A stretch of DNA of 61,743 bases, counting the filler, from Hausera hauseri (lineage: Eukaryota): the NCBI GenBank assembly GCA_046269625.1. It is 11 parts of 11 records of this genome, joined end to end, with 100 filler letters (N's around TTAATTAATTAA, not from the genome) between each part and the next. Parts side by side here need not be neighbours in the genome. Positions count along the whole stretch, not along the records: positions 40,688 to 48,819 come from JBJURY010757652.1; 10 more parts are not named here. The stretch is one strand, 5' to 3'. The notes beneath the pieces are model-generated. The model did not search any database, was not told the origin of the DNA, and saw nothing but the letters and a program-made list of their open reading frames with translations. This document shows positions 5,598-61,743 of the stretch, piece after piece (the first letter of the stretch is position 1; the number at the start of each line of letters is the position of its first letter). The translations under genes and the position numbers were made by a program.

Positions 5598-5609
5598 AAG
5601 GAGGAGAAA
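5598..5609 (+). other. Polypurine tract
   Basis: AAGGAGGAGAAA immediately followed by TGT, preceded by TTCGAGGA as often seen at Gypsy 3' ends. Confidence 0.65.
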
Positions 5610-6150: not shown

Positions 6151-6771
6151 GAAAATGTCAGTCAGCTTCATGGATAGCTCGCTGTTTTATTTTATTATGT
6201 GAAAGGGAGGCGTGAATACGGGGGTCTGTGGTACACCTCATTGCGTCTGTATTTTCTTCAACACTGAATGGAAAAAATAGAAGATAAATGGAAACGCAGG
6301 TTATTCTGCTTGTTTCGAAAACTGTCATTATTGCAATCCAATCTCCTCTTGAGTATCTATTTTAGTTGAGTTTATATCGGTCGAAGGGTCAACATCGTCG
6401 CACACGGATATATATCCATAAGTTCTCAGTTCTTCATTCTGTAGGATCTCAGATTAAAGGACGTGTTCCGTTGTTTTCCCTAGAATATATTCTAAATTGG
6501 GATGTCGCTATTTGCTTGAAAGGTATGATACATTAAGGGAAAAATGCAAGATTGGCCTACGAGCCCCGATTTCATCCCTGTAAAAAGAATGACTGATCAG
6601 ACAAAAGTATAAACATAGAGAAGCGCAGATGAATGAGCGTGAATAAGAATCTCTGTAGCACAACCTTGTCCAACACGGCGCAGAATTCACTGTGCCGAAC
6701 GTTTCTGAGCAAAAATTTGAAGGCACATCTGTACTTTGGATGGACACACCTAGGCAAAGTCAGCTAGTCTT

Positions 6772-22891: not shown

Positions 22892-22988
22892 CGTCTATGA
22901 ATGCGATCGTCATATTCTCACATTTTTTCATTTTGGATAATTCTTTGTTATAGTATAAACGTAAAATACGCTTATCGAAAGCATTTAA

Positions 22989-25183: not shown

Positions 25184-25945
25184 TTACTCATCATCGTCAT
25201 CACTAAAGAGTTTGCCTATCATTAGTACCGAGAGTATCCATAGTAGTATTGAGGTCAACGTGGGACTCGGATGTTGAGATGCGGTCTCGTCTGCATTTGC
25301 TATATTGATCATGGATAGGAAACATATTCCCGTAAAATGTAACGTTCCGAGTGAAAACGAAGTAGCGCCTTTTATTTCCGAGGATTCCCGTTTTTTATCT
25401 TTTTCTTGAAGGTATTGAATATGCATAGCTCTTGTCTTATTTGCAATTTCGCCTAAGTATTTAGTACAGTTACCGGCAAATTGTAGTGGATCAATTTTCA
25501 TCCATTGTTCTGGAGGGAGATTGCTATCTAAAGGTTGGCCCATTATTCTGTTCCAAACTCGTTTGATTTCTTCTAATCCGTTAGTAAGTTCTTGGCCTTC
25601 TATATTTAAATTATAGTGTTTATAGATTTTTAACGCTCGGCTGACTGCCATATAGTCATGGTGTTGGGATTTTCCTGGACTGGCTAAGTCGGGAATTGTA
25701 TAATATACTTTTTTGCAATTTATCTTTATTAGAAGTCTGTCCAATGAAGTCAGTGTAATAAAATCCAATTTTAGATCCTTGCAAATTATTTTTATTATTG
25801 GTTTATATTGTTCATCTGTTATCTCGCATTTTCCGTGATACTTGCAGAGAAATTCTCTTAATTGCATTACAATATTTATGGGTCCCTTGATTAGTTCCTG
25901 TGCGTGATTAATACGCTGTGGAGAGGCTAGCAGGAAATTTTCCAA
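25184..25945 (-). CDS. Unknown protein fragment ending in two hydrophobic segments
   Basis: 253-aa ORF; LHFTGICFLSMINIANA and LTSILLWILSVLMIGKLF. Confidence 0.4.
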   Translation of the reverse strand: MENFLLASPQRINHAQELIKGPINIVMQLREFLCKYHGKCEITDEQYKPIIKIICKDLKLDFITLTSLDRLLIKINCKKVYYTIPDLASPGKSQHHDYMAVSRALKIYKHYNLNIEGQELTNGLEEIKRVWNRIMGQPLDSNLPPEQWMKIDPLQFAGNCTKYLGEIANKTRAMHIQYLQEKDKKRESSEIKGATSFSLGTLHFTGICFLSMINIANADETASQHPSPTLTSILLWILSVLMIGKLFSDDDDE

Positions 25946-31841: not shown

Positions 31842-32447
31842 AGTTGCAAAAACCAATGGAAGCTATTACGAATGTTGGAGCATTTGGAACTAGGGTGCAA
31901 GTAAAAGACTTAATTAAATGTGAGACAAAAGTCTTTAATCAAAAATTGGAGCAAGAATTTAGAATAGCCGATGAACTGGTGGCTGAAGCTATACTTGGTT
32001 GTGATGCACTAGCAAAGTTAAATGATATGTGTATGAACTTAGAAACCCAACAAATTCAACCATATCGAAAAACAAGGAATGAGAAAAAAAAATATAGTAT
32101 CAATTGAAGATGATATGTTAATAACAGCTAGAACAGAAATTGTACTCAAGGCATTAGTAGAAGGCCGAGACGAAGAAGACGTATATATCGAACCAAATAT
32201 GATTTTTATGGACAAGAATGAGCTATAGATAGCCCATACCATTGATAATATTCGAGAACACCAAGTGGTTGTTCGGATAGCTAACGTTTCAAATAAACCA
32301 AAATTATTGAGAAAAGGGACAAGAATTGCCTATGTATATTTGATAAAGGATATAGGTAACAATGCTACGGAAGCTATTATTTCCACTGTACAGGAATTAT
32401 CCGAATTTATGGAAAGACAATGACAAAAACCACGAACAGAAGCCTGG

Positions 32448-35015
32448 ATGCGATTAGAAAGTAAATCAATGAATAAATTGCAAAGTCATCTTAACAAAAA
32501 CAAAAATATAACAAAACTTGTCAAGACTCCTACCATATGGAATGATTATGACCTGTTCGGTAAAGATAGTACATTGACTGATGCGGAAAAAGAAGGTACA
32601 ATAAAAATATTACAACAATATAAAGATACCTTTGCCATCGATGAATATGATATGGGTATTATACCCGTCATCAAACACGAAATTAAACTGAAGACTGGAA
32701 TGGAAACTCCAATTAAAAAGAGGCCATATCGGCTTAACTATGACAAACGAGAAAAGGCTAAAAAAATAAAAGCCGAAATGAAACAGCATGACATAATTAG
32801 ACCAAGCAACTCACCATGGACAGCACCTATCGTGATGGTACAAAAGAAGGATGGGTCCATTAGAATGTGTGTGGATTATCGTGCTTTGAACGAAGTAACG
32901 GTAGACAATACCTACCCGTTACCGAGGATTGACGAAATATTAGACAAGCTGAAAGACAAAATGTTGTTTACCACGTTGGACTTACAAAAAGGTTTCTGGC
33001 AGATAGAAGTACAAGAAGAGGACAAACAGAAAACAGCCTTCGTGACGGCAGACGGACATTATGAATTCAACCGGATGGCATTCGGAATGAAGAACGCCCC
33101 GGCAACTTTTCAAACAGCTATGGATATAATTACCATGGATGCTCCACACATAATGTGTTATGTGGATGACGTTATAATTGCGTCAGCTGATTACAAACAA
33201 CACAAGGAACATCTTAAGGATATGTTGGAAAGATGTGCTCTCTTGGGAATTAAAATTAGTTTAAAGAAATGTTGTTTTGCCCGAACTAAAGTTGACTTTT
33301 TAGGCCATACAGTAAGTAGAGATGGAATTAGTCCACAAATTGGAAAAATCAACAAAATCCAAGACTTTCCAGTTCCAAAGACTGTTAGAGGAGTTCGAAA
33401 ATTTCTTGGCCTTACAGGCTATTATCGTAAATTTGTTAAGGACTATCAACAGATAGCTTCCCCTCTACATTCATTACTACAAGAGAATTCCAAGCTTGTT
33501 TGGACCCAAGAGTGTCAAAAAGCATACCAACAATTAAAGGACTGTTTATTAACTCCACCAATATTAGCGTACCCTAATATGTCAAAACCATACTTTCTAG
33601 CAACGGATGCAAGTAAAGTCGGAATTGGAGTAGTCCTGTCACAAAAAGATGATCAAGGACAAGAGCACCCCATATCATTTGGAGGAAGGAAGCTGAGGAA
33701 GCACGAAAAAAATTACTCTACAATTGAGAGGGAACTGCTTGCTATCGTCTACGCGTTAGAACAATATGGCCAGTATCTATCTGAAACAAAACCAATTATT
33801 GTTTATACTGACCATAAGCCGCTACAATGGTTAAAAAGCCATAAAAATCCAAATAGTCGCCTAATGAAATGGGCTATGTTACTTCAACCCTACGATTTGA
33901 AGTTTGAATATAAAGCTGGTAAAGCTAACGCAAATGCTGATTATATGTCAAGGATATCTGAGGATATAGATCAAAAAGATAAAGAGATAACAGATAAACC
34001 AGGGGCCATAGAAGCCATTTGGAGTATAACAGAGCAAGAAAAATCGCTACAACAAAGACAGCAGAATGATGAACAGGTAAAGCAAATTAAGGAATACCTT
34101 CAGAAGAAGATTGTGCCAAAGAATAATGATCTCTACACCCATTTGACAAAATTTGCTGAAAATTACCAGATAAAAGATCGTATATTATATTATAACCATA
34201 AAGGAAAATGTGTCGTCGTTGTTCCCCAAGAAGATATAAAACTTTTGTTAATACAATACCATGATGGTATGTTGGGCAGACATCACTCAAAGAAACGGAC
34301 TTTAGGTCGATTGAAAAGAAAATACTATTGGTATAAAATGTCCAAAGATGTAGAAGAATGGAGCAAAAGTTGCCCTATTTGTGCAACGCGAAGGAATACG
34401 GGCTCGAAAATTAAGGTTCCTTTGAAACCATTAGAATGCCCACCTGCCCCTATGGAGTTCTCAGCCATGGACATTCTAGGACCGTTGCCAATGACTATAA
34501 ATGGGAATAAGTACATGTTGGTTTTTGTTGATTTATTTTCCAGATGGCCCGTAGTAGTTCCGATACCAGACCAAAAAGCACAAACTATTGCACAAGCGTT
34601 TGTTGAAGAGATTGTATTCAATTATGGAGCACCTACTAAACTACTAACAGTTCAAGCTCCAAATTTTATAGGAGAAGTAATGGCGGAGATTTCGAAGATA
34701 TTCCATATATTACAGTTAAAAACTACCCCATATCATCCACAAACTAATGGAGCGGTCGAGCGATTTAATGGAACCTTAACCAACATGCTTGTAACTATGG
34801 TTAATGAACGACAGGATGACTGGGATGAATACATCAAACCATGTTTATTCGCTATAAGGAATACAATTCATCCTGCGACAAAAGAAACTCCGTTTTATTT
34901 AATGTATCTTAGAGATACGCACATGCCAGTTGATATAGATTTTAAAATGCCCCTGTCTCATCTAAAGGACATGGAGTATAAAGAATTATTAGAAGAAAAA
35001 CTTGGATATGTGTGA
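32448..35015 (+). CDS. pol: Gypsy Pol: reverse transcriptase, RNase H, integrase
   Basis: RMCVDYRALN, YVDD, TDASKVGIG, TDHKPL, MDILGPLP, YHPQTNGAVERFN; frame continues after a single TGA. Confidence 0.97.
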   Translation: MRLESKSMNKLQSHLNKNKNITKLVKTPTIWNDYDLFGKDSTLTDAEKEGTIKILQQYKDTFAIDEYDMGIIPVIKHEIKLKTGMETPIKKRPYRLNYDKREKAKKIKAEMKQHDIIRPSNSPWTAPIVMVQKKDGSIRMCVDYRALNEVTVDNTYPLPRIDEILDKLKDKMLFTTLDLQKGFWQIEVQEEDKQKTAFVTADGHYEFNRMAFGMKNAPATFQTAMDIITMDAPHIMCYVDDVIIASADYKQHKEHLKDMLERCALLGIKISLKKCCFARTKVDFLGHTVSRDGISPQIGKINKIQDFPVPKTVRGVRKFLGLTGYYRKFVKDYQQIASPLHSLLQENSKLVWTQECQKAYQQLKDCLLTPPILAYPNMSKPYFLATDASKVGIGVVLSQKDDQGQEHPISFGGRKLRKHEKNYSTIERELLAIVYALEQYGQYLSETKPIIVYTDHKPLQWLKSHKNPNSRLMKWAMLLQPYDLKFEYKAGKANANADYMSRISEDIDQKDKEITDKPGAIEAIWSITEQEKSLQQRQQNDEQVKQIKEYLQKKIVPKNNDLYTHLTKFAENYQIKDRILYYNHKGKCVVVVPQEDIKLLLIQYHDGMLGRHHSKKRTLGRLKRKYYWYKMSKDVEEWSKSCPICATRRNTGSKIKVPLKPLECPPAPMEFSAMDILGPLPMTINGNKYMLVFVDLFSRWPVVVPIPDQKAQTIAQAFVEEIVFNYGAPTKLLTVQAPNFIGEVMAEISKIFHILQLKTTPYHPQTNGAVERFNGTLTNMLVTMVNERQDDWDEYIKPCLFAIRNTIHPATKETPFYLMYLRDTHMPVDIDFKMPLSHLKDMEYKELLEEKLGYV

Positions 35016-35299
35016 AACCTAGCTTCACGACATATAAAAATATGCCAGAAAGAATATAAAAATAGATACGATGAGAAAACGAAGTCCCATGGTTTCAAAC
35101 CCGGAGATAAAGTCATGCTACATACGCCGTTAAATAAGAAAGGCAGAACACCAAAGTTGGACAGACCATATAAAGGTCCATATATGGTCCAAAAAGTAGA
35201 CGAAACGAATATCTATTTGAATAAAAACAAAAGGAACAAGATAGACCCGATAAAAGTCCACGTAAACAGGTGCAAGCCAGCAACCACAGAATCAAGGAT

Positions 35300-36093
35300 T
35301 AGAAGTGGAAATCCTAATTTATTATTAGTAACAACGTTTATGGTATTGAGTTTAGTGACTTGTGCATCAACTCAGTCTCTCGATGTCAAGTATAAAGCTG
35401 TTCAAATCGGAAAATACCCATGTGTAAAAATTACAGCCAACCGGAACTTAACAATAGATGAATATATACATATATTCATATCAAAATTACCTATTGTGGA
35501 AAAAGCGACACCAGAAAATTGTGATTTATACCACAATCATTCAGTACATATTTGTTGTGGACTTTCATTTGGAGAAACGTATAGAATTCAGTACGCAATT
35601 GGAAAAAGTGATCACGGTTATATAACATATTTCTCTTTCCCAGGTACTACCCATTACTTCCATCGACCATATTTTCTTATTTCATTTTATTCCAAGGTCA
35701 TGAAAAATGGACCTTGCATAACAGCAGAACCAGACGTACAAATCACGAAGTATGTAACATTCCAATATGAAATATTCGATGGCACTAACAACACATATTG
35801 TAAACCAAATTACCAAAATCCATATGTGTTGTCCAATTATTTTTAATAAATAGTATATGATATACTATTGGACCACGTACAATGGTTATACATGGTCAAA
35901 AACAGCAGATGGACCCGAGATAATAGTAAGATCCCCGGTAAAGATAACCCCTACTTCAACAAGAAAAGCAACTACCTTGGTGACACAATCAAGTATACTA
36001 ACTACATTACATAAAATGGTAACGAGTCCCACCATGGAACCTAAGAAGAGAATCAAAGAACTAGACATAATTATACAACCAACAAATTACTCA
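35300..36093 (+). pseudogene. Signal peptide, Cys-rich ectodomain repeats and Thr-rich stalk fused downstream of integrase
   Basis: LLLVTTFMVLSLVTCASTQ; PCVKIT..NCDLYHNHSVHICCGLSFGETYRIQY; TPTSTRKATTLVT. Confidence 0.65.
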
Positions 36094-40687: not shown

Positions 40688-40729
40688 AATTGTTATTCCA
40701 TATATAATCCAAAGTGAATTTTCACCTCC

Positions 40730-40918
40730 TTGGGAAAAGAATGTGCCATTTGTTTGAGTGAATGCTCAATGGACCAAATAGAATTAATTACAAGTAAGCA
40801 TCAATTCTGCCGTCAGTGCATAAAAGGATGGTTTGCACCTGAAACCTCTTGTCCAAAGTGCCGCACTAACATTAAATTATTCCAATATGGAAATAACTAT
40901 TATACTGTAAAGAATTGA
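40730..40918 (+). CDS. RING finger protein, C-terminal fragment
   Basis: CAIC..SKHQFCRQC..W..CPKCR (one ligand Cys reads Ser). Confidence 0.75.
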   Translation: MGKECAICLSECSMDQIELITSKHQFCRQCIKGWFAPETSCPKCRTNIKLFQYGNNYYTVKN

Positions 40919-41153
40919 TAAATAAAATTTTAGTATTAAAATTTTGTGATGTTATAGAGTATATTGTATTTTAGCTGAAATGCAAAAGGTCAAAAAACTG
41001 TAATTCCAAACACCTAGACAGTATGAATATGTCAGACCAGTACAATCTAATACAGTACAATATATATTACATTATCAGAATAGACAATTCGGACCAGCGT
41101 TATTTATTAAAAGACAAATAAGTTACTCCAAGGCTATAGTATTAGATAACTCT

Positions 41154-42197
41154 ATGAGAGATACACAAAACAGAAAGATATCGTTTTTAAAATACCGAAA
41201 TGCGCCTATTCCAGAAGAACTAGCACAAGCATATGTTAAAACCGGATTATACAGAACTACAACAGGACAAATTAAATGCATTTATTGCCAAGGAAAATTC
41301 CAATATAAACAAACGAAAGATCGACAAAATGAAATACATAAGAAATCACATGCTACTTGTCCTTATTTATTAAATCTCGATATCAGTAATATACCGTTTA
41401 TAGATACTTTTGTTAAAAGACCTGATTCAGATAAGGATACGAATTATGACACAACAATGTCAGTAAAAATAATTTACTCAACGGATAATACAGTGAAAGA
41501 AAATGTATATTGGATTTCAAACACAGTGCAAAAGAGAAAATTAACCTTCAATGGAAAAAGAGAAATTGAATATCTAGCTGAACAAGGACTAATATTGATA
41601 TCTAAGGAAGAAAAACAGTATGTCAAATGCACTATATGCTTAAAAGAAACGTACTGGTTAGAAAACCCCGATCAACGATGTCCAAAAATATTACATACCA
41701 ACAAGTGCGAATATTCAGCAAACAGAACCTTCGATAATCACACCAAGAGACAATGCAGAATACAATTCAATATCGGAAAACTATATGAATGTTACCAAGA
41801 TAATTTAGCAGCTACATCAGTGATATCCAGACATCCTACCAAACGAGAAAATATTCTACAGTACATTAAATATCGGACAGAAACTCAGTTGGACTGGTCG
41901 CCAAATGTATTCGAACTATGTCAGAATCTAAATTTTATCTCCCCGGAGAAAGAAAGAAAACACGAACGAAATATTCTCAACAACCTTTATCTGCGTGGTC
42001 TAGAATGCGTGATTTGCTATGTGGATGTAGCACAAGTCATTTTCTTGCCTTGCGGTCATTTGAAAACATGCGAGAAGTGTTCAAATAGAACAGCGAATTG
42101 CCCAGTTTGTAAGAGTATTATAGAAAGACAAGTGACGTATTTTCAGTTTTCAGAAGAAAATAGTGAAATAACTCTGACAGATATGGGCCTTGATTAA
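41154..42197 (+). CDS. Inhibitor-of-apoptosis (IAP)-like protein: BIR, divergent BIR, RING
   Basis: BIR1 CIYC-x16-H-x6-C exactly; BIR2 LAEQG..CTIC..H..C; IAP-type RING CVIC..VIFLPCGHLKTCEKC..CPVC. Confidence 0.9.
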   Translation: MRDTQNRKISFLKYRNAPIPEELAQAYVKTGLYRTTTGQIKCIYCQGKFQYKQTKDRQNEIHKKSHATCPYLLNLDISNIPFIDTFVKRPDSDKDTNYDTTMSVKIIYSTDNTVKENVYWISNTVQKRKLTFNGKREIEYLAEQGLILISKEEKQYVKCTICLKETYWLENPDQRCPKILHTNKCEYSANRTFDNHTKRQCRIQFNIGKLYECYQDNLAATSVISRHPTKRENILQYIKYRTETQLDWSPNVFELCQNLNFISPEKERKHERNILNNLYLRGLECVICYVDVAQVIFLPCGHLKTCEKCSNRTANCPVCKSIIERQVTYFQFSEENSEITLTDMGLD

Positions 42198-42337
42198 TAA
42201 CCAATATAAATTTAATTGAATAAATGTTATTTAGTTCATATGAATTTGTTGTGATAAAATTGAATAAATTTATTGTAGAATTACCGGTTATCAACAGTAT
42301 GACTCTAATCAACCTTAGTGAGTAAACAGTTCAAGTA

Positions 42338-42787
42338 ATGAAAATAAAGAATCAACCACCTAAATTAGGATATCAATGGTACAGATTGTATAATAGCTCT
42401 GTACTCAACAAGATAACCGAATTGGGATACTCGAAATATTTGGCAATGATTGCTATTAAAACTAATGAGAAAGCAGAATACGAAGCATCACCAAAAATGA
42501 TTACCTATATATACCAAGTGCAATTAATGGATAACAATTACTATCAAGGAATTTAATATTTGATTTCAACATTAAAAGAAAAAGAGAAAAAAATAAAAGA
42601 AAGATGCATAGACCTTAGCCGTGCAGTTTGGATTTGTGTAAGTTGTAGAAAAAGTCAAGCCAATATATTTTACCTACCATGTGGACATATTATTCATGTA
42701 AGATTTATGTACCTAAAGGTTCCATGTTATCAAAATGTGCTATATGTGAATTGTCCATAGACGAAGTGTGTACTATATACATATAAT
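42338..42787 (+). pseudogene. UBA-like, coiled-coil and IAP-type RING (IAP C-terminal half without BIR)
   Basis: KITELGYSKYLAMIAI (UBA-like); CVSC..IFYLPCGH..CAIC with a stop and a frameshift. Confidence 0.65.
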
Positions 42788-42790
42788 AAA

Positions 42791-45420
42791 ATGGATAATA
42801 ATCTAGTCTTCCTTAATAACAATGACGCAGGGACACCAGTACAACACTCGATCCGAGGATGACTGGCACAGGGTCAATCAACAGCAATTAATGAGATTGC
42901 TTTAGATGAAGGAAATATTAGCCCTACTAAAAGTTCGGATACGTTGAGCACAACATCCGCCCCAGGAACACTAACTGATATTGATTCATTACAATTGTCT
43001 CCTGCTGCGATACAACATCAATGGGTAAGAGGAGTTAATGGTCGACGAAGGCCATCCCGAGAGCAATATCGTAATGCATTTAACTCACGACACTTGACGC
43101 AGAGAATAACTAACCAGGAATTAGAATGCCGAACACGTTATGAAGTATATAATATAAATGTAAATGATCTCAGAATAAGACAGAATCGAACGTATGACAG
43201 TATACAACAACTAATTGAAGAAATACAAGATATACCCCGACAAGGAGGAGGAGTTGCAATAGAAACAGATGTTATAAATAATGGTATAAGATTGGACGAA
43301 GTCGAATGAAAAATCACCCAAACAGAGCAAAAAGTGAATAATAATAGTATGGGTTTAAACAAATTGGGTGCGAAAACTGGTCAACTTGCACAAGAGGTTA
43401 GCATCTATTCTAGACAAATGCGTGATATTCGACAGCAAACTATTGAACATATAGCTGCATTATATAGGAATAGAGAACAGATAGATAATAACGAAAGACA
43501 AGTAAGGCAAAGGATAAACTATATGCAAAATCAAGTAACAATTATAGTAAATGAACAGGACTAAATTCAAGAAGGAAATAACTGTACTAGAAACCAAATA
43601 GAAACGTTGCCGCGAGATATAGATCGATTGAATGAACGTCTTGAGCAAGTAAGGACAGAGGAAATAATAGCCCAACGTCAGGAAGAAGTACGCACACCCG
43701 AATTCTCAGTAGAGGTAGGTTCAATGTCTTGTGAAACCTCCGATATCAATAGCAGCAACATGGAGCCACAAGGAGATAATCGAGGGCCAATGGCTCATTT
43801 AAACGGATATAACTGCGACCCTAACAATAATAACGCGGCCTACGATTTACCAAATTACAACGAAAGGCGAAGAGAAGAGAAATATCAAACACTTCCTCGT
43901 CTTCAACCATATGAAGGACGCATATCGGACTTGGAATATTTCCTGGACTAATATGAATCTCTGGCCACAGCTATGCATTGGAATGATGCCAAGAAAATAT
44001 CACTTCTATTAGTGCATGTGAATAAGGATTTAAGGATGGCAATAACGCGTCTACCTCCACGAGTAAACGAAACTTGGTTGCAACACAGAAAAAGGATTTT
44101 ACAAAATCAGCAGGTCAATATATAAGAGAAACGATATCTAAAATTTCAAAATTGCAAACAGAAACCAAACGAATAAGTGTTGACTTATATTAATAGATTT
44201 AAAACAGCAATGAGTAGATATTTTAGCCATAACGCAAACACCTTTGGTGCCATGATTATGAAACAATTTGTACTTGGACTTTTACCACCCTTAAGAGAAG
44301 GAGTTAAGTTCCATACTCTTAATAACATTAACGAATTGATAGACTATACTAGAAAAATGGCAACACGGATAGATGAGATACCCTTATGGACTGATCAAAC
44401 GCAAATAGCAGCAGTGGCTACAACATCATTATTAGTTAGACCAGATGTACCAAATCGTAGTAATTCACCTTGGAGAAATTCTTCAAGAAGTCAAAGTCCT
44501 AATCGTCAAGGTACCAATACCCCACAGCGAAGTAATACTCCAGAGAGAGGAAGCTTTAACCAGTCATCCAGAAATTACAATCAAAGAGACACACAATACC
44601 AGCAAAGTAGGGGAAATTACAATGATCGACAGCGAAACGATAAAACACGAGGTGATTCAAGAGACAAAAATGACAACAGAAGTCGATTCCCTAGTACAAA
44701 AAGATATAGCAACGACCAAAACTTCGGGCGTTACGATTATAGAAACCCATTCTATAGACGAGATGGTAATTGAACACGATACCCAAACAACCGTTAAGAA
44801 GAATCAAAATCTAATTATTCTAACGACAGGCGAAGTGAAAGTCGTGAAAGGTTTAGAAGAGATGATAGTCGAGAAAGATATAATAATTTTAATAGAAACG
44901 ACAGTAGAGAAAGGAATAACCGGCGAGGTGATAGTAGAGAAAGAAATAGCTTTAGAAATGACAATAGAAGTGGGTATAATAATTCAAGATCAGGAAACTA
45001 TAACAGAAGACGTGATTATACTTCATCTCGACGAGAATCGGATAGATATAATAGAAATCCTATTCCATACCCTTCAAGAGATCAAAACCGAACTCCTTCC
45101 CCCAGATCAAGTAGCGATAATAATAGGTATACTCGATCACCGGACTACAGTTCCAGACGAAATGAATCATCGCCAAATAGAACTACCTCCACATTCAGGT
45201 ATAATAGGAATGTGACACCAGAATATTCCAAAAATTTCAATAAAAGGAAAGTGGATTCAACAACGCCATCTTACAGCAATCCTTAAAAAGAAAAAGGAAA
45301 TTTATCAGATAATAAGAAAAGTAATAACGACGAACGAAATGTCTCACCTCGTCGTTAGGTAACTTTTAATGAACAAACTAAATCAGCCTTTACGGGCTTA
45401 GTAATAGCAAAACCCATAAT
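42791..45420 (+). pseudogene. gag: Gag: coiled coil, retrotransposon capsid domain, long Arg/Ser/Asn/Asp-rich tail
   Basis: One frame from ATG 42791 with about ten premature stops; PYEGRISDLEYFLD*YESLATAMHWND, CKQKPNE*VLTYINRF, QFVLGLLPPLR. Confidence 0.8.
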
Positions 45421-45559
45421 GGAACACCATCAAGTTACATCCAAACCACCAACCAATAGTTCTATACTGGAAAAACCCTTCATAACTAGAAAGCATTTGG
45501 ATCAGGCAGAACGGAAAGTACCAGATATTCAAAGTAATACACTCCCATACATGTTATGG

Positions 45560-46830
45560 CCAGAAACTAAAGAAATCAAAAATTTACTTTTGACCTTTGT
45601 AGCAATAGATAAAATTAATGAAGAAGCACAGGAACCCAAAATTAACCGAATAAGAATAGACAACATTGAAGATGATTTGATAATTGAATTAAAGAATGTA
45701 TATCTGGAAAAAGAAAAACACTATGAAAATCTTAGACAATTATTCTGTGGAAAACTCATAGTCGGAATAGAATTACCATGGCTATTTAAAGAAATACAAT
45801 TAAAAGAAACTGATATCTTTGGTACATTCAGTGTAGACCAGAATTTTAACTTACCAGATGATTAATGGGAAAGAGAAAGTACATTACCACAACAATTAAA
45901 TAATTTACGAAAGAGTACAAAACCAAACTTAGTCGTCAAGGATCTCCATATTTCATTTTTCCAAGCAACCCTTCGTACAGGGACGACGGACGTCCCGAAC
46001 ATAAAATAACATTTAATACTACCCTAATTCCAGAGGCAGTACTAGAGCGCATGGACATGGATATTGTTCAGAAATGGGATAAACTGTTTGTAGACAAGAA
46101 AACTAACCGAATAGAGTTCACGGACATCACCGAACAAGGACCAACTTGCATGGAAGGGATTGATAAAGTCTACCTTAAAAGGACTGATATTCGAATCAGA
46201 AGAAATGACCAGCCATGTGCTATAATTACCAATCAGGGAAAAGCTCGATTGAAAATTAATGATAAGATGGTAATAGTTTCTAAGGAAACTAAGATACTCC
46301 CTAATTACCCCTATGAAGGAGACTATCAGATTCAACCTTTAGGTGATTGCCCGATATACTTAATACAATTATTTAAGGAAACACCCGTGTTAATTGTGTA
46401 CGAACCCGTGAAGCAGGACAAAGAGATAGTTCTCACTGGTAGATGTATAACTAAAGGAAACCAAAAGGGACTTGCTCAGGTTACAGCTAAAAACTTAGAA
46501 GGAGAAATAATACTTAATAATCATGTATATCCAAATATACCAGATACTACAAAGTATACTGAATAGAGTCGACGGTCTAATCTCCAACGCCAAGAGTCGG
46601 TAAGTGAATTTATGAATAAGTATTTGCCAGGAAATATAATCATCGGACGATGTTTACGAGAGCTATTAAACACTTTGAAAATAAATTACGTAAATTTAAC
46701 CGCTATTTATGATTTGGAGCAAACTAACAAAAAATACAAATGTTTAGGCTTATATAATGGTCATAACTTAGAAATTATGGCACAAAGATGTCAATACCAA
46801 TACCTAAAGACAGTACGAGTGGAATACAAT
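45560..46830 (+). pseudogene. Two degenerate DEDDh (REX4/ISG20-like) exonuclease domains
   Basis: FVAIDK..NRIRIDNIEDDLI..QLFCGKLIVGIEL and LAQVTAKNLEGEIILNNHVYP..YLPGNIIIGRCLRELLNTL..IYDL. Confidence 0.55.
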
Positions 46831-47427
46831 GTGGCATGGATAATAGAAAGCCAAAATACGTTACGAATAGCCTTTCCAGCAATAGACGAAATGGAGAAAA
46901 CTGAAGAAGCTAGAGCAATTTCAGGAATTGAACCAATCGCTCAAAGACATCCGGATATGGATTCCGACGAATATTCACACGAGTCTGAGAGAATTAGACT
47001 AACCGGGGAATGGATAGACCAGTATGATGATAGATTAGTTGCACCAATTACCCAACCGAAGGTTCTGCCCCAACGACCAACATAATTCGAAGATATCCGA
47101 GATTCAATACAACCCAGTATATCTAAGAAGGAACCTCAGATAATGGACGATGAAACATATGAAATCTTAGATGCTGATATTATATCTATATCAGATACGT
47201 TCCATTATTTCGGAAATACATTATCACCAGTTGAAAACCCAAAGATTATTCCGGAAGTGAATATTCCACCAGGATCTATAACATACGGCGAACGCTCGGA
47301 GTTAGTAATAGAAAAAATTACAGCTAAATTACAAATGACTGATCCAGCACCCAATGAGGTATGGGATGCTTTATGACAATATGAGACACAGCCATTAATC
47401 AATCGAATAGAATGCGAACCATTACTT

Positions 47428-48486
47428 ATGCCATTGACAATGGATGATATATTTTGTTTCTTAGCTGCAAGAAAATTATTAAAGACGCTAGGAAGAGAGT
47501 TAAGACGAAAACACCAAAGAAAACCACCGTATATAATAAATATAGAAATTAAAACCAATAAACGCGAACAAATAATTAAAGTAACAACGGGAATGTTTAC
47601 TAAATTCACAGACCTTCGAAGAAAGGTACTAGACGAATTAGATCTCGAAACTAATATAATAGCAAAAACTAATTTTTATGGCAGATTAGCCGTTGACAAT
47701 GATCATGTTGTGGATTATGGACTACTTACTGGAAAGATCTACCAGATTACTATGGAAATAGTCAATAAGAAAAGGGGAGGAAGATCGAGGAAATGTGATT
47801 TTAACCCAGTAAGTGACGATGAAGAAAAACCTGAAGAGGAAGAAAAACCAGGAAGGCAAAGAAAGAGAAGACATTTGTCACGAAAACGTAGGGAACAACA
47901 GGAAACAGTAGAAGATATATTATATGACAAATTCCAACGATTTACCATTAGTGACGATGAAAACGAACCAACACAAAATCCAATTTCAGGAACATCAAAC
48001 CAGAGTGACGTAAATGTACCAAAAGTGACATTGACAACTCATGAACTTCTAGAACAGTTAATTAAGAAAGCAAACCCAAAACAACTTAAGAAAATACCAG
48101 CAATTACAACAATTACACTACTTTCCATAATAGAAACTGCTGGAAACTTTTCGTCACAAATCACAAGGTTATTACACAAATACGAAATGAAAGGAGGTTT
48201 AAATAAAGCATTGACACGGTTATTAAAGGACTGTGATCAGAATCGATTATTGATGGCTTTTGGATTCATAGTGGTTAGTTTTAAAAAACAAACAGCGATC
48301 GATGCTAAATTACATCACACGATAAGGGAATTAGCCTATCATATGGATGAGCTAACAAAAGATTGGGTAACAAAACATGGTGGTTGGGATGAAATCCTCA
48401 AGAAATTCGATCCCACCACATTAATATATCCTAAGAATACCAATATCTCTTGGTGGTACAAATCATTCACTTGCTACTATACTTAA
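47428..48486 (+). CDS. BH3-like motif, ubiquitin-like domain, basic/acidic linker, Bcl-2-family domain
   Basis: LKTLGREL; INIEIKT..FYGRLAVDNDHVVDYGL..KKRGG (47536-47781); BH1-like DQNRLLMAFGF; BH2 DWVTKHGGWDEILKKF. Confidence 0.8.
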   Translation: MPLTMDDIFCFLAARKLLKTLGRELRRKHQRKPPYIINIEIKTNKREQIIKVTTGMFTKFTDLRRKVLDELDLETNIIAKTNFYGRLAVDNDHVVDYGLLTGKIYQITMEIVNKKRGGRSRKCDFNPVSDDEEKPEEEEKPGRQRKRRHLSRKRREQQETVEDILYDKFQRFTISDDENEPTQNPISGTSNQSDVNVPKVTLTTHELLEQLIKKANPKQLKKIPAITTITLLSIIETAGNFSSQITRLLHKYEMKGGLNKALTRLLKDCDQNRLLMAFGFIVVSFKKQTAIDAKLHHTIRELAYHMDELTKDWVTKHGGWDEILKKFDPTTLIYPKNTNISWWYKSFTCYYT

Positions 48487-48819
48487 TAGCTGTAAGCAGC
48501 TTGAATACGACAAAAGCATAAGAAGATTATGATTGTTCCCGACCAGAAATAACAGACACACTTTCATTAATGAATATAGGTAAGTGCCAGAACGCGAATC
48601 CGATATCAGTGAAAAAGAGGGTCCTTACGATTATAATTTGTATCAGAGAATCAGTTATGAACAAGTGCAAGTAAAGGAATGCCAGGTTAATAAAGTAATA
48701 TTCGCTTACAACTGTGGTCGTAATTTATGGAATTCAGTGATTATTCCATTAGGATTACCTAAACCTGTAACAATAACGGCCGAAAATTGTAGGAAAGCCA
48801 CAGATTGGATTCACATAGA
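48471..48819 (+). pseudogene. env: Signal peptide and N-terminus of a chuvirus-glycoprotein-like envelope protein (cut by contig end)
   Basis: LLLYLIAVSSLNTTKA*EDYDCSRPEITDTLSLMNIGKC / YNLYQRISYEQVQVKECQVNKVIFAYNCG..ITAENC. Confidence 0.65.
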
Positions 48820-48919
48820 NNNNNNNNNNNNNNNNNNNNNNNNNNNNNNNNNNNNNNNNNNNNTTAATTAATTAANNNNNNNNNNNNNNNNNNNNNNNNN
48901 NNNNNNNNNNNNNNNNNNN
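48820..48919. other. Artificial contig spacer
   Basis: N44-TTAATTAATTAA-N44. Confidence 0.98.
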
Positions 48920-48989
48920 TACATGTTTGATGGGTTGAATTGAAACATCCATATAATCGTACAGTATAACCAATTGCATTACCAAAGCA

Positions 48990-49198
48990 CAGTGGATGAA
49001 GAAGAAATTCGTGATGCATTCTGGGTTTTTGATAAAGATGGCAATGGCTTTATTTCGGACGCTGAATTAAGACATGTAATGACAAACCTCGGAAAGAAAC
49101 GTACCAACGAGAAAATCGATGAAATGATTCAAGAAGCTGATATTGATGGAGATGGTTAAATTAGTTATGAAGAATTTGTTATAATGATGACAACGATT
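48990..49198 (+). pseudogene. Calmodulin C-lobe (EF-hands 3-4) pseudogene fragment
   Basis: [47 protein letters not shown] with a stop in EF4. Confidence 0.9.
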
Positions 49199-50171: not shown

Positions 50172-50910
50172 TTATATTAATTGATATCGAGTCCATGAAG
50201 CAGATGAATTTGCAAATCTCAGTTGCAATGACTGATCTGTATAAATGTTCAACATGCAGCTATTGGTACTTATTTGCATGAAGGCACTTTTACAATATGG
50301 CTGCCTGTTCAAACACCTAAAAATTATAACTTAACTTTGTTAAGCACGAATTATTAGCTTACTTAAAGGTACAATACATTGGAGACACGTCAGAATAAGT
50401 CTCCAATAAGCCTTCTTCAGCGTTATTATTCACAACCATCGATGATGGTGACAATTTTATCATTTGTGATACAACCTGGTTCAATACACAAATGACGTCT
50501 ACAGAATGTGGTGAAGTACACGACCAATCACATAAACCAGATGGAGACACATATATGATGCAGTCTTGTGGTATGGAAACGCCGTTCAGTTCACCTGAAG
50601 GCCAGTACGTAGTCTGTGTAAAAATTGACCCATCAAAATTCAGCCATCCATTTTTATCATAGTTTCGTTCATTGACCAAATCTGATATGCCTACATAAAA
50701 ACGGTTAGCCATCCAATTCAGCTGTTTTATGTTATCCAAATCTGGACCATTGGGTAATTGACCATTCATAGTTTCACAATATCGCGCAGCATCCCATGTA
50801 GTCATTGATGTTACTGAATTTCTTTTATAATATGTTTTACCATTAATAATCGATGTAGCTGCATTGGATAACCCAACTAAACAGAGAAACCAAAAGAAAG
50901 TATCAACCAT
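50172..50910 (-). CDS. Secreted C-type lectin + PAN/apple domain protein, two exons (50910-50363, 50316-50172)
   Basis: Signal peptide MVDTFFWFLCLVGLSNA; CTLD (YC..GQL, FYVGISD, W..GELN, QDC, DWSC, VIC); 46-nt GT-AG intron; exon 2 CLNRQPYCKSAF..SCML. Confidence 0.8.
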
Positions 50911-51619
50911 ATTTGAAACTGAAATGAGAAGGCTAAAAAACTGACGTTTACATTTTTGAACAACTGTTTTATTCTGCGTTTGACAAAAACAAATGGCGTT
51001 GATGCTCATTTGTTGTTCTCTCTTTTTTCTATGCAACTATCCAAGATATTTGAAAATAATGAGAACTATTTGATGGGTTTATTTTACATACACAACAAAT
51101 GAATAACAATCAAACTAATAAACTCAGTTGGACTGCGGTAATAAAGGAGTTGAAAATTGGTTGATGAATTTTGATTAGTTTTGTTTTTACTTTTGTGTGC
51201 CGTATGGAATTGATAAAAATATTTTTTTATTAAAGTCGCCATTGTTCCACAATTTACTTATGACTAGATATAACTTGTGGATTTTCCTCCAGGATAAGGA
51301 AAATCTCGTAAACATTGTAAACGGTTTTGACTTTACCATAATTAACACAAACCTCAGGGTGCGATGCCTGACCACAGATGGTCAGGTCAATCGGCACAAT
51401 AAAAATTTATAACTGGATGTCAGAAATGGTACAATTATTGAATGAAAAGTAATCATGGATATATCTAAGGCCTGTATCGAAAAGTATTGACGTTGCATAA
51501 AGTACATTTTTGTGTGAAAAGGCGTTTGATATATAATGATTGGGTTGTATGAAGAAACACGTGAGTGCTATGAGCAACTGTGCGTAGGTGTTTTGAAATA
51601 TCTTTAGTATTTTAATAGC

Positions 51620-54937: not shown

Positions 54938-55332
54938 CCTAAATTCTTATCTACCGGCATTTGCCTTCAATTTAGCACTGATGTTATAATTGCACTAGCT
55001 ATCAAATTATTACACATTAACATCCCTTTAATGCCGCCGTGACTAGCGACGACATCACGCGCAATACATAGTGGACAATACACTAACCAACTTAATGCAC
55101 TCCAGAAGGGTGCGACAAAATGAACATCTGATTTAGATCCAATGGAGTGGTAATAATTGTAGTATTACTTTTACAGTCAAGCATAGCAGTTGACTTTGCA
55201 CTGAAAATTAGTTATACGAGTAGGGGACATAATTGAGCGATGCTAACTCTAGTTGAACTAGTTAAGAAGTGTGGATAAATTACCGAGAGACATACAATTA
55301 GTGGTAGTCTTGAGATCGTGTGACAATAGACT

Positions 55333-56800
55333 TTGGTAGAGACACCGGAGAGAAACATGACAAAAAAAATGGTGTCAGCACCTCCCCCTACAGAAGAAAG
55401 GATGGTGACTGTACAGCAGCACCAACTCGAGCACATGATAGCGGAACATACAAGCATGAAAAAGGCACACGAGGAGATGAAAGCCATGTGGGAACAACTA
55501 CAAGCACAACAATCTACGGTCACTGGAGCCCGACCTCCACCAAAATCAACTGCAGGAAAAGACGATCCCAATCGAAGAGCACTGGATAAGATTGACAACA
55601 TGGTGAGCAAGATTGATTTAAACAGCAAACACCAGAACGTTTGCACTTTTGTGTAGTCCTTTACAGGAACTGACTCGAAATCCTTTAAGTCTTGGATTTC
55701 ACAAATTGAGAAATACTCACACTTGGTGAAGGCAACACAGGAGGAGAAAAAAGAGCTGGCTACACTACATCAGACGGATTAGCCAACGATTTTATCAAAC
55801 GGAGATTCAGAACACATCCAGATGAAGACTGGGAAGCTTTCAAGAAGACATTAGTGAACAGTTATGCTGAGGTTACAGATATGCAATACGCGATTGCTGC
55901 TCTCAGAACAATCCGTCAGGAAAGAGATGCACTGGTCCAGTTGTACAGTGATAGAATGCTTAATATGGCCGAGGATGCATACATGGGGCAAGACATTATG
56001 GCAGAAGATATCGGCAAGTTACTGATACCTATATTCATTGATGGTCTTAGGAACACACCAACGAAAATAAAATTGATGAAAGATGACCCAAAGACGATAG
56101 CAATTGCGATTCAGACAGCGGTCGATGAAGACAATTTCAACAAGAGAGTCAATATGAGACTAGGCAGAAAGACGCCAAACGATTGACAGGAAGAACACAT
56201 GGACGTAGATCACTTCCAAACAAAATGGCGATGATGACAGCACAGAGAACATGATGAACGTTGGGACGACAGATATTACAGACATAATGCAGTTCACAAA
56301 GTAGAAAGGGATACCAAATGTGGCAAAGATGGACACATTGCCAGAAATTCTAGAAGCAAACAGGAGACAACCAACAACCCCCAGACATAATGCTGCAAGT
56401 TCAAAACAGTGTTACAAATGTGGCAAAGTGGGTCACTTTGCAAAATTTTGCTGAACAGGAGACGGAAGTCATCACAGGCAACAGGAAAACACATATTCTG
56501 TTCCGTAAGCTCCGACCCGAACAGGAAGTTAGCAGGAGCCACACAGGAAATACGGACACAGAGGAGCAAGATATGAAAGTTACCAACATTTCAGTACAAT
56601 AGTCAGGGAATCAAACATTCTAACACAGCAAAAGAGAGATACCATGCACGAACATCTAGAATTATACCGAATATGATGAGGTCTATGAGAAGGTAGGAGA
56701 ATCGAAAATTCAAGAAGAAACCACAGAATCAGAACACGAATACACGAAATGATAAACAGAAAGAAATGAGATTCGCTCAGAACAAGTAACATGACAAACT
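55333..56800 (+). pseudogene. gag: Gag with capsid domain and CCHC knuckle
   Basis: FKSWISQIEKY, LRTIRQ..FIDGLRN, CYKCGKVGHFAKFC. Confidence 0.85.
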
Positions 56801-57056
56801 AGTAGGAAGTCGCAACAGGCAACACACTGAAAACCAAAGTCAGAAGCAGGGCTACAAACACGAACCAATGGAAATAGATGCATCTCATAGAAAGCAGCAA
56901 ACACAGAATTTCCCATTCCCACCCAGCCCCAAGAAGCAGAAAGAAGTTAACACCCACATCCCCAAACCCAGGAAAATCAACGTCCCTTTCCCAGAAGAGA
57001 AGTCACGATAACACACCAGCGGTAGTAGAGGCGAAAGAGACCACAGACTATAGGAA

Positions 57057-60000
57057 TCATAGAGGCGAGATTAACAGCCTTGAAGATCCAAGCTCTTGTT
57101 TAATATATTTTGAGAAGGTCAGAGTCAGATGCTTAGTGGATACAGGAGCCCAAGTCAGTATTTTGAGTGAGAGAGTCTTCAGGATGCTGAAAAAACAGAA
57201 TAAACTAACTCGGAATAACACGGACTTAAGATCTATTACCGGAAGTACACTACAAGTTTTGGGTAAAGCAACATTAGAATTTCGAATCGGCGAGATAAGT
57301 GTGAAACATACGTTCATGATTGTGAGAAACATGTGTAGAAGTGCTATACTGGGAAGAGACTTTTTGCTTCAACACCATGCCAGAATATACTTCGATCTGA
57401 AGAAAATACGAATACGTGATACATACATTGAATTACATGATGATACGCATGTAGCATCCATTATACGAGTCAAACAAAAAGCTTTGTTGAGACCAAATTC
57501 AGTAAATATTATAGTTTCAGCTATGAAGAAAAATGACTATTGGCATATAGGAGACAATGTAACAATCAGCCCATAGAAGATACTGAGATAATTGAAGAAC
57601 CAGGTCTACAAGCAGTATCGGGAATAGTGAAGTTAAACAAAAAGAGAGAGTTCCCAATAATGATAATGAATTTTACCGGAAAAACAATAAAGTTAAAGAA
57701 AGGCTGTATTGTGGCGAAAGCAGACAAGAAAAATGGAGGTAGCTGTGAAACAATAACTAACAGCCAGAGTAATATGCGCCGAACAACAACGGTTGAGACA
57801 CGAAACGACAACATCACAACAGACACAGATCCAAAACGGAGTCATAGAGACCAAGTGCTGCAGGAAATCAAGAGCGGGTTATGGAGAGTGAAGTCGACGA
57901 ATATAGTGGCGGAAGTAAAGCAAACGGAAGATAGACTTACAAAACTACTTGAAACATTGAAAGTCGATAGACAACATAAGGAGAGAGTCGAAAAATTTAT
58001 AACCCAGCATGCAGATGTTTTTGCAATCACGGATATGGAGCTTGGGCGCACGACCACTGTCACGATGGAGATCAATACAGGCGATCATACACCCATTAGC
58101 CTCAAACCTTACAGAACTCCATTAGGCAATCGGGAGATAGTGGAAAAAGCGGTCGAAGAAATGCTTCAAGCAGGTATCATTGAGCGTACGAGATCTGAAT
58201 GGTCGTTTCCAGTTGTCATCGTGACTAAGAAAGATGGATCACACAGATTTTGTGTTGATTACAGACAACTGAACGCCGTTACAACCAACGTCAGTTACCC
58301 CATGCCGCTCATAGACGATATACTAGGACTTTTAGATGGCACGACTTACTTTACCACCCTCGATGCCAGATCTGGATTTTGGGCTATACCAATGTCACCG
58401 GATGCCAAGCAGAAAAGTACCTTCTGTACCCATACTGGTTCATATGCATGGAATGTGATGCCCTTCGGTTTGAAAGGCTCACCCGCGACCTACATGTCGT
58501 TAATGAACATTGTACTGGAAGGCCTACAAAGCTTCGCGTTGGCATATATAGATGATGTGCTATTTTTCACGAAAGGAGATATTGAACACCACTTAGCACA
58601 CGTTGAGAAAGTCTTTGATCGAATGAGGTAGCATAAAGTAAAACTAAAACTTAGTAAATGCGAGTTCCTCAAAGAAGAAACAAAATATCTGGGATTCATT
58701 ATTACCAGAGAAGGAATCAAGCCAGATAAAGAAAAAGTAGCAGCAATCAGACAGATGCCACCACCACGTACAACGAGAGAAGTTCGAGGATTTTTGGGCA
58801 CTTGCGGATACTACCGTCGATTCATAAAAGATTTCTCAAGAATAGCTGAACCACTAGTGGCCCTGACAAGAAAATTCGCCAGATTTCGATGGGAAGAAGA
58901 ATGCCAAAGAGCGTTTGACCAGCTGAAGCAAAGTTTGACAGTTGTCCCATTATTAGCATATCCCGATACCAGCAAAGGATATATTTTATATACGGACGCT
59001 TCCGATTACGCCATAGGCGCCGTTCTTACCCAAGAAGACGGTGAAGAAATTGTCAATGGCAAGCCGAGAAAGAAAGAAAAACCGATATACTTTCTCTCAC
59101 ACCGATTAAGCAAATCCCAGAAGAAGTGGCCCGTACTAGAGAAAGAAGCATATGCTATCCATTATGCTCTACAAAAACTCAACTTCTATTTGCATAACAG
59201 TCAGTTTGTAGTCCGCACTGACCATATGCCTCTGAAAGCGATGTTAAGATCCGACGTCCAGAACAAGAGAATGCAACAATGGATACTTAACCCTCAAGGC
59301 TATAATATTTCTATAGACTACATCAGAGGACCACAGAATACAGTGGCCGACATGTTATCAAGAATATCAGAATCAATACCAGCAAAATAACCAACTGAAG
59401 CAACAACAGACGAAGCAACTCCAGATATCGATGACCATACATTACAGATTTCAGTAATCAATTCTGATCAGAAACATCTATATAAAGACGATAGCAACAC
59501 TGACTCAACAAATGAAGAACATACTGAAACAATGTTCGCTATGAGAACCTAGCAAAATAAAGACGACACGTTAAAAAGAATCATTGACGATCTGAAGTCA
59601 GGGAAACCTGACAAGTTACAAAAGTGGCGGAAGTTTACACTTGAAAACGGTGAACTATACAGAATTGGTGGAACCGAAAAACACAATTTCAAAGAATGTG
59701 TCCCGAAACAGCTGAAAGAAGAGGTCATTAAGCAATATCACGATGAACTAGGTCATCTAGGCAGAGACCGTACCACCGAAATGATTGCTCGTAAATATTA
59801 TTGGGCTAACATGAACAAGGTGATAAACGAATATGTGAAACTCTGAAAAATGCAAACTACGGAATATGGAAGCTTTGCGGCATCCACTTCAGGACCCTGA
59901 TTATGCCTCTTTCCCATTTGAAAAGATTAGTTTGGACTTATCGGGACCTCACCCAGTTACAGCATCAGGAAACAGTTACATCTTGCACATTGTAGATATT

Positions 60001-60720
60001 TATAGCTGTTGGCACGAACTACATGCCCTACCAGACAGATCAGCAAACGGCATTATCGAAGTTCTAATGGAGGAAGTAATCCCATGCTATGGTTGTCCGA
60101 AAATTCTGATAACCGATAACGGCAGGGAATTTGTCAATAAGGCAATGACAGACACCCTTCGAGAGTTGAACATCAAACACATCACAACTGCTACATACAA
60201 CCCGGGAGCGAACGGATTTAATGAACGTCAGCATAGCACGCTATGTGATGTTATCACCAAGTACGTAAATAACCAACCGAAAGACTGGGACATGTACTTA
60301 AAGCAGGCAGCCATGGTAGTTAGAATCAAGGAGAATGGGAGTCGACGATATGCACCATATGAAATGCTATTCGGAAGAGAACCCATTTAGCATTGGACAA
60401 CTTGCTGAAACCAAGACCAAAGTACAATGGTGAAGAGTTCCACAAATATGAGACTTCATGAGATATCCGTCAACATCAGTAGGAACTTAAGGCACGCACT
60501 TAAACAGAGAAAAGATCGCATTGAACCAAACACAACGAATCAAGAATTTGCAATAGGAGATAAACTATACTACAAGAATCACCATCGGTCCTCAAAAATG
60601 GATAATAGATGGATCCCAGGATACCAGATAGTTGAACAAAAAGTTCCAGTTACCTATGTCATCAAAAACCAGTATACGGGTCAATCCACCACTACAACCA
60701 CCAGTCAACTTAGGAAAGAT
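57057..60720 (+). pseudogene. pol: Pol: protease, RT, RNase H, integrase
   Basis: LVDTGAQVS, RFCVDYRQLN, YIDD, YTDASDYAIG, SLDLSGP, ITDNGREF, YNPGANGFNER. Confidence 0.95.
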
Positions 60721-61743
60721 GATACGACATTTCCAGAAGAAAGTAAACCAGAAAATGACACACGTACACGTAGATCCAGATATGTAGTTCCACCCAAAGA
60801 AAGTAGTTCAGAAACTACAACAGATAGCACCAACACCAATACAGACGATGAAGAAAGTGACACCCATTATGAAATTATACCTATGCCAAGTACAACTACA
60901 ATGCAACCAGAGAAAGCTAAACTGGCCGACAACGACGAGGAATTAGATACTAAAGCACGTTATGAAAATACCAGAGCAGCTGCTAGAAGAAGGTTCGACG
61001 AGGCAAAAACCAAACAAATGAAAATAGCAAGAAAAATGAGAGAAATGTCATCCGAAGATAGCGATGTCCCATTACTAGAAAGAAAACGAAGATTGCAAGA
61101 CAGAAAAATCCGACAAGCTCAAGAAGACAAAACAGATAACGAAGACACACAAGAAGAACAATCCAGCGATAAAGCTACAGAGGAAAACCCTTCCGATGTT
61201 ACTCCTAATGAATACTCGGAAACTAAAACATCCTAAATGGAATGTATAGTAAAACACACCAAACATACCCGAGACCCAGTATCTGATAATGGAGAAAAAC
61301 CATGAAATGAGATCCCACGCCAAGCAGTATTGAAGAAGAAATATTTGAAGCAAGCAACCATTCTCAGAAACCAACAAGATGGGGGAAAAAACAGCAATGG
61401 ATGCAAAAATTGCGGAAATACGCAGAGTTGTTGGCGAAAAAGACAAAGAAATGAAATAGATTCAAACACAAATAGGGGAAGTGACACTGGTTAAACGAAA
61501 TGCAGAAATGCAGATCCACGCACTTCAAAACCAGGTACAGGCAAAAGAAGATATCCTACACGATATGGAAATACAGACCATGAAACTGGAGAACGAAAAT
61601 AGGGAGAAAACTGAACAATCGCTAAGTTACGGAAGCAATTAACGAGTCTAATAAACGGCAGTATGAATACGAATGAAGCAACACAACGGGTACACGAAGA
61701 TGATGTCCACGACAGGACACAAGAAACAACAATAGTCGATAAG

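Follow-up and report, generated by a model that had tools for sequence, protein, structure and literature searches.

For the giant gypsy-like LTR retrotransposons Burro/GYPSM1 of planarians, a layout of Gag-cargo-Env-Pol has been published in which the cargo includes ubiquitin-like, Bcl-2-like, and BIR domains (PMC6431247, section 7). Hallmarks of this type include long LTRs and an overall length of about 30 kb or more. A GAG-ENV-POL order has also been published for the HSV/gB-type errantiviruses of Platyhelminthes, Nematoda, and Bryozoa (e.g., Smed_errantivirus_1-6), and ENV-POL gaps of up to 2 kb were allowed there (PMC13524379). Burro1 B-IAP, with its BIR plus RING region, is reported to act against caspase-mediated death (Lee et al. 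2026, as cited in PMC13465017).

We analyzed a window of 61,743 nucleotides from Hausera hauseri, consisting of 11 unrelated contigs with artificial spacers between them (the spacer was found 10 times). The 8.1-kb contig at 40688-48819 carries an element copy in the order IAP-like ORF, Gag, R/S-rich region, cargo, and Env, with no pol between; its 3' limit, 48819, is set by an artificial N-spacer and falls inside env. The features are as follows.

41004..42197, plus strand: accessory ORF with BIR and RING (IAP-like), 5' of gag (PF00653, E 1e-6; PF13920, E 1e-12)
42320..42757, plus strand: second accessory frame, decayed, with a partial RING at its end (PF13920, E 0.0013; two stops)
42791..44440, plus strand: Gag, a long N-terminal helical/coiled-coil-like part followed by the capsid, with stops inside (PF03732, E 4e-5)
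44440..45360, plus strand: Arg/Ser/Asn/Asp-rich low-complexity region in the nucleocapsid position (from sequence; conserved in P0003)
45569..45865, plus strand: first exonuclease-like repeat, shortened (hhalign to the second repeat, 24.8)
46402..46830, plus strand: DEDDh exonuclease-like domain (ESM Atlas on P0003 640-810)
47518..47760, plus strand: probable ubiquitin-like domain (phmmer within a small set, E 0.002 to the equivalent part of P0009)
48025..48420, plus strand: Bcl-2-like helical domain with a W-x4-GGW (BH2-like) motif (hhalign and PDB search)
48450..48819, plus strand: internal signal sequence, then the opening ~120 codons of a fusion glycoprotein of the gB/mononegavirus type (PF24664, E 3e-5)
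48820..48919, no strand: artificial spacer (N44, TTAATTAATTAA, N44), marking the contig end
31842..36093, plus strand: separate contig that opens within a protease and continues with RT, RNase H, and integrase, followed by a signal sequence and an Fn3-like region

We consider it very probable that this copy, whose contig ends inside env, represents the 5' half, now decayed, of a high-copy Ty3/gypsy LTR retrotransposon of Burro type (Gag-cargo-Env-Pol), and that pol is most likely to be found about 1.7-2.5 kb beyond the contig end. Judged against the published description of Burro rather than the Burro1 sequence, and on a copy that shows no pol, LTRs, or total size, the likeness comprises an N-terminal Retrotrans_gag Gag, a ubiquitin-like domain (probable here) followed by a BCL2-like domain, an env directly after BCL2 that resembles mononegavirus fusion glycoproteins, and BIR and RING cargo (PMC6431247, section 7). 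Unlike in Burro as described there, no MATH or ankyrin domain was seen in our copy.

The copy is dead, decayed by stops and frame changes. The preliminary description had read 42791-45865 and 46051-48486 as one reading frame each, and both are indeed biased single frames, with 10 stops in 1025 codons for the first (68 and 138 in the remaining two frames) and 3 stops for the second, taken from 45904/46051 to 48486 (78 and 78 in the other two); because of these stops, however, neither frame is open. Frame changes occur near 45910, 48450, and 48615. For Burro, too, decaying copies that carry stops and frameshifts have been reported (PMC6431247, section 7), whereas the Smed-type errantiviruses are intact (PMC13524379) and our copy is dead and truncated, with an env that forms a long branch among its relatives. 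The element is a repeat of high copy number, the assembly is fragmented, and the contig includes neither element end, with no LTR or PBS present. Read contigs from two sequencing runs on the 42791-48819 stretch are short (the longest among those listed is 333 bases), so they cannot bridge 2 kb past env; depth is at most 13 at all of the 15 joints listed, out of 38.

At the 5' end, the IAP-like ORF is open over 397 codons from stop to stop and is multi-copy, as is the remaining element; it shares a BIR plus RING region with Burro1 B-IAP (PMC13465017). Gag, with its capsid domain at about 44051-44281, matches Gag of P0008, P0015, P0017, and P0018. Burro carries 2-3 CCHC knuckles (PMC6431247, section 7) and zinc knuckles are kept in other env-first relatives, whereas a pattern search (C-x2-C-x4-H-x4-C) found none in P0001-P0003, where the R/S-rich region stands instead. 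We infer that this region is likely RNA-binding.

Between the capsid and the ubiquitin-like domain, the R/S-rich region and the two exonuclease-like repeats are unlisted for Burro in section 7 of PMC6431247. The alignment of the two repeats compares with a best score of 15.0 from 20 shuffles. The first repeat, with no Pfam matches, is likely inactive. For the second, the ESM Atlas matched P0003 640-810 to an RNase_T cluster (0.91) and to other DEDD-type clusters (0.85-0.90), Pfam and PDB sequence searches were both blank, and no catalytic acidic residues were seen by eye; we predict a pseudonuclease. Comparison of these repeats with those at window positions 3775-4170 and in P0013 scored no higher than shuffles. 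A tentative FHA-like reading of 46150-46400 was dropped when Pfam gave no support. The ubiquitin-like candidate sits in the same position as that of Burro; its profile score was not above shuffles and it has no Pfam matches. A Bcl-2-like domain directly 5' of env is suggested by weak but consistent matches: the top PDB match is Bcl-2-related A1 (E 0.11), hhalign against the corresponding region of P0004/P0005/P0018 gave 31.7 (shuffles 14.8), and P0005 matches PF00452 at this region (E 0.001). The ESM Atlas returned 0.77 and no family for the Bcl-2-like part. Single-sequence AlphaFold models (n = 2) were uninformative (pLDDT 34 and 42), and fold searches with them were empty.

The env portion at 48450-48819 is broken by frame changes, cut by the contig end, and 71-72% identical to P0003 1340-1462. 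P0003 is an intact sister, collinear with the contig copy and about 48-72% identical to it by region; it is open from the R/S-rich region through the end of a complete env (E 2e-63; full env length 620 residues), with hydrophobic stretches at 1336 and 1904. The env cysteine/motif pattern agrees by eye with six S. mediterranea C1a env rows and is unlike the Bryozoa or Nematoda rows shown from PMC13524379. In a quick env tree, in which it is a long branch, P0003 groups with every one of the 13 env-then-protease rows, and with P0005, in a clade of 16 rows (SH-aLRT 97). The Gag-accessory-Env polyprotein proposed earlier is supported by the open frame of P0003 and by P0018, where a single frame runs from Gag through a Bcl-2-like domain into env; in the contig copy itself, env is incomplete.

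P0003 and P0018 also bear on whether an ordinary Gag-Pol-Env element lost pol in this copy, or whether repeat pieces were assembled into a chimera. The decay of the copy (13 stops, three frame changes) and its high copy number in a fragmented assembly would suit such an event, but the independent P0003 has the same order unbroken, P0018 joins Gag, Bcl-2-like, and Env in one frame, and 0 of 21 close relatives have pol before env. We regard this explanation as highly improbable, P0003 having largely refuted it already.

The preliminary description was right that no protease, RT, or integrase motif lies between capsid and glycoprotein. DTGA/DSGA and YxDD-type motifs are absent between gag and env (the second frame has a lone YRDD, at its residue 25, outside any RT context), and no protease, RT, RNase H, or integrase was found there in any frame. 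PR, RT, RNase H, and IN profiles built from env-linked relatives, which detect pol on other contigs with i-E down to 1e-117, found nothing in six frames of the whole contig, 45420-47400 included (best i-E 1.1), so the gap between gag and env is real. Of two explanations offered earlier, a non-canonical position of pol is the better supported, as the layout is published and pol lies 3' of env in relatives. Among the close env relatives (21 non-self matches at E<=1e-30, only 26-36% identical), none has RT or integrase before env, and 11 run >100 residues past env. In all 11 of these an aspartic protease comes next, 55-317 residues on (weakly in P0008, E 0.002), and RT is reached in 5. In P0015 a single frame spans Gag, knuckle, Env, PR, RT, RNase H, and IN, and P0153 runs from Env through IN over 4844 aa. 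The contig is cut ~120 codons into env, and the "missing" enzymes are most likely just beyond the cut, at the expected 1.7-2.5 kb, rather than absent.

The other explanation was a pol-less partner mobilized in trans: the family's frame would end with env, and a related autonomous element would provide the enzymes for its packaging and copying, perhaps receiving Gag, Env, and anti-death cargo from it. The P0003 frame closes with the env tail, P0005 and P0019 likewise end at or just after env, searches of proteins and of viral, metagenome, and genome contigs found no same-family env-protease bridge, and pol-bearing contigs abound in the same assembly. The P0003 stop makes a pol-less family possible, but it also fits a separate pol frame (ENV-POL gaps up to 2 kb, PMC13524379) or a contig end, and the protease in 11/11 extending relatives speaks against absence. 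As for the helpers proposed at 1-6150 and 31842-36093, 1-6771 and 31842-36093 are separate contigs, neither neighboring 40688-48819, both without LTRs, and our contig has no DNA or tblastx similarity to any of the ten others in the window, which hold no LTR to compare. Contig 31842-36093 begins inside protease, as a cut back half would, and probably represents the 3' part of an env-first element, a candidate unlinked to our copy whose placement is not firm because the RT tree has a single outgroup row. With the contig ending inside env, the contigs unlinked, and no LTR or PBS, mobilization in trans gained no positive support, and a narrow literature search found no report of pol-less env-bearing partners. 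We judge a truly pol-less family unlikely.

Under the Burro-type reading, we postulate that the intact element makes one long protein of which Gag and cargo would remain cytosolic. The hydrophobic stretch before env would serve as an internal signal sequence threading the glycoprotein into the ER; after cleavage by signal peptidase, the Bcl-2-like domain would stay in the membrane, held by a tail anchor. Through the env transmembrane helix the chain would re-enter the cytosol, with protease, RT, RNase H, and integrase next, either in frame or in a downstream frame of their own. Host cells may be kept alive by the BIR-RING and Bcl-2-like cargo.

The family is one divergent addition to a published class, and its lack of a zinc knuckle, its R/S-rich region in that place, and its two exonuclease-like repeats extend the Burro-type cargo list. 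Were this very high-copy family instead to end at env, which we think improbable, it would act as a satellite of a Burro-type element, supplying envelope and anti-death cargo and being packaged with helper enzymes in a two-component endogenous virus-like system of an invertebrate; such a satellite would supply an envelope rather than borrow one, which would bear on the cell-to-cell spread of such elements.

Ten copies of one spacer (N44, TTAATTAATTAA, N44) join the window's 11 contigs, and the gag-to-env stretch lies on the contig at 40688-48819, its right edge at 48819 being the end of that contig. Because the pol-bearing stretches at 1-6771 and 31842-36093 belong to other contigs, their nearness is meaningless, and the proposal in the preliminary description that they are candidate helpers has no positive support. 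No LTR is present in this contig or in the window's others, and no DNA or translated similarity links it to any other window contig. The two reading frames described earlier, 42791-45865 and 46051-48486, are real as judged by stop bias (10 stops versus 68 and 138 in the other two frames, and 3 versus 78 and 78, respectively), but neither is open.

Features of the gag-to-env contig (40688-48819)
41004-42197, +, BIR-RING ORF, upstream of gag
within 42791-45865, +, Gag capsid (PF03732 E 4e-5)
45569-45865, shortened exonuclease-like repeat
46402-46830, exonuclease-like domain (ESM Atlas RNase_T 0.91 and other DEDD-type clusters, a lead)
47518-47760, probable ubiquitin-like domain
48025-48420, Bcl-2-like domain (best PDB sequence match Bcl-2-related A1, E 0.11)
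right end of contig, +, start of viral fusion glycoprotein (PF24664 E 3e-5)

We made protease, RT, RNase H, and integrase profiles from env-linked relatives. They matched neither this contig, searched in all six frames (best i-E 1.1), nor its intact sister protein P0003, while they recovered the pol of other window contigs at i-E 1e-7 to 1e-117. Thus, pol does not lie between gag and env, and the earlier claim that protease, RT, and integrase are missing there withstood a remote-homology search. P0003 (1963 aa), the one longer homolog among 4766 candidates, follows the window collinearly from 44546 up to the end of the contig in four pieces (48%, 56%, 71%, and 72% identity), the window changing frame relative to it near 45910, 48450, and 48615. 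The gag-to-env order therefore characterizes the family and is not, as had been considered, the product of a pol deletion private to the window copy. P0003 contains a complete env (PF24664 E 2e-63), of which the window copy reaches only P0003 residue 1462, leaving 501 residues absent. The family is at high abundance in two public sequencing runs, X1 and X2 (18766 and 2229 short contig pieces, 30/30 bins covered). A third RING finger at the contig start (40721-40918, +; PF13639 E 6e-8) falls in a bin with much less depth than elsewhere on the contig (118 versus 2363 in X1, 1.3 versus 78 in X2) and reads as a rare cargo variant or a captured host piece ahead of shared element sequence.

Among the cargo domains, the Bcl-2-like domain matched Bcl-xL in the PDB (E 0.15 or higher) when a six-row profile was used. 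Against the equivalent position in P0004, P0005, and P0018 its profile scored 31.7 versus up to 14.8 for shuffles, and P0005 matches PF00452 there at E 0.001. What we take to be the acidic catalytic motif of the exonuclease-like domain is, by eye, not kept at 46402-46830. No CCHC knuckle was found, an R/S-rich region standing in its place.

A search with the C-terminal 937 residues of P0003 returned 757 proteins at E<=0.001 and 22, including P0003 itself, at E<=1e-30. In a Pfam scan of all 21 non-self env relatives at the latter threshold, RT or integrase preceded env in none (0/21). Eleven extend >100 residues beyond env, and in each the next domain is an aspartic protease, 55-317 residues on (including P0008, whose match is weak, E 0.002); RT and RNase H are reached in five of the 11 and integrase in four. 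Six of the other ten stop inside env, and four without protease (P0005, P0019, P0020, and P0024) end at the env end or <=55 residues past it. P0015 holds Gag, knuckle, Env, PR, RT, RNase H, and IN in one frame; P0008 and P0017 are Gag-Env-PR, P0018 is Gag, knuckle, Bcl-2-like, Env, and the cluster member P0153 runs from Env through IN in 4844 aa. Several tandem protease-like domains occur in P0004, P0009, and P0153, relatives with env before pol (3-6 stretches in P0009 and P0153). P0010, a retroelement polyprotein of this env-first layout, is recorded in a Flavobacteriaceae MAG as a hypothetical protein, and probably comes from animal DNA binned with bacterial sequence. In a 58-row env tree made by a quick method (rows covering <430 residues and matches ranked below P0075 left out), P0003 joins a 16-row clade (SH-aLRT 97) that also takes in P0005, the fragment P0014, and every one of the 13 env-then-protease rows (two pairs of these are near-copies), while P0020 and P0024 fall outside; the long branch of P0003 makes its exact placement unsure.

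This order is known from Burro, which has Gag, Ubi2/SUMO-like, BCL2, Env, and then PR-RT-RNase H-IN, carries BIR cargo, has an Env matching mononegavirus glycoproteins, was called the first element to carry env in frame between gag and pol, and left decaying fragments in a third planarian (PMC6431247). PMC13524379 describes gB-type GAG-ENV-POL elements in Platyhelminthes, Nematoda, and Bryozoa, and its S. mediterranea rows look, by eye, similar to the window-family env. PMC13465017 cites work from 2026 on the Burro1 BIR-RING region; passages of PMC8532177 add nothing on structure. We conclude that the gag-to-env stretch is very probably an env-before-pol element of this known kind cut by the contig end, the gap being real and its cause ordinary. 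Our inference of env-to-pol linkage in the P0003/window family draws on the literature and on relatives whose env is 26-36% identical. A pol-less satellite family, which we regard as improbable, would fit P0003 terminating where the env tail ends and our finding no same-family env-to-pol bridge among proteins or viral, metagenome, and genome contigs, but it sits poorly with the protease that follows env in every close relative extending >100 residues past it. P0003 may terminate where it does because its contig runs out, because a stop separates env from a pol frame of its own, or because a pol-less element finishes there. Under env-before-pol, distances in relatives would put the protease start ~1.7-2.5 kb beyond 48819.

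The contig at 31842-36093 starts inside a protease and looks like the downstream half of an element with env before pol. Its RT-RNase H is 42-50% identical to env-first relatives, whereas the ordinary gypsy at 54938 gives 39-40% (one outgroup only), and the contig ends (+) in a signal sequence and a weak Fn3-like region (E 0.046), an ending that P0007, P0010, and P0153 appear by eye to share. Base make-up is alike (A 0.38 versus 0.41 in the gag-to-env stretch), and contig pieces, which do not measure copy number, are of the same order (13983 and 2097 on 4252 bases versus 18766 and 2229 on 8132); the two are possibly of one family. The contig at 1-6771 (+) carries RNase H-integrase and then a signal sequence, with a post-integrase region weakly like that of 31842-36093 (E 0.0015) and, by eye, an exonuclease-looking stretch near 3775-4170 that has no Pfam match. 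Elsewhere, 54938-61743 (+) is an ordinary gypsy element (Gag-PR-RT-RNase H-IN) whose protease looks intact, and 21767-25945 (-), with several long A-rich frames (253, 384, and 375 codons) of no Pfam family, may be the accessory end of a different large element. Frames at 14814-16535 (+) read by eye like what we take to be a piggyBac-type transposase, 50359-51036 (-) is an intronless C-type lectin ORF (PF00059 E 6e-5), and 48980-49190 (+) looks by eye like a decayed calmodulin-like piece, with no match in the frame scanned.

The window copy cannot work. An intact element would make a single long protein, with Gag and cargo in the cytosol. Hydropathy marks hydrophobic stretches at P0003 1336 and 1904; going by the general behaviour of signal peptidase and retroelement proteases, the first would act as an internal signal for Env, leaving the Bcl-2-like domain membrane-anchored, and the helix at 1904 would bring the chain back to the cytosol for Pol.
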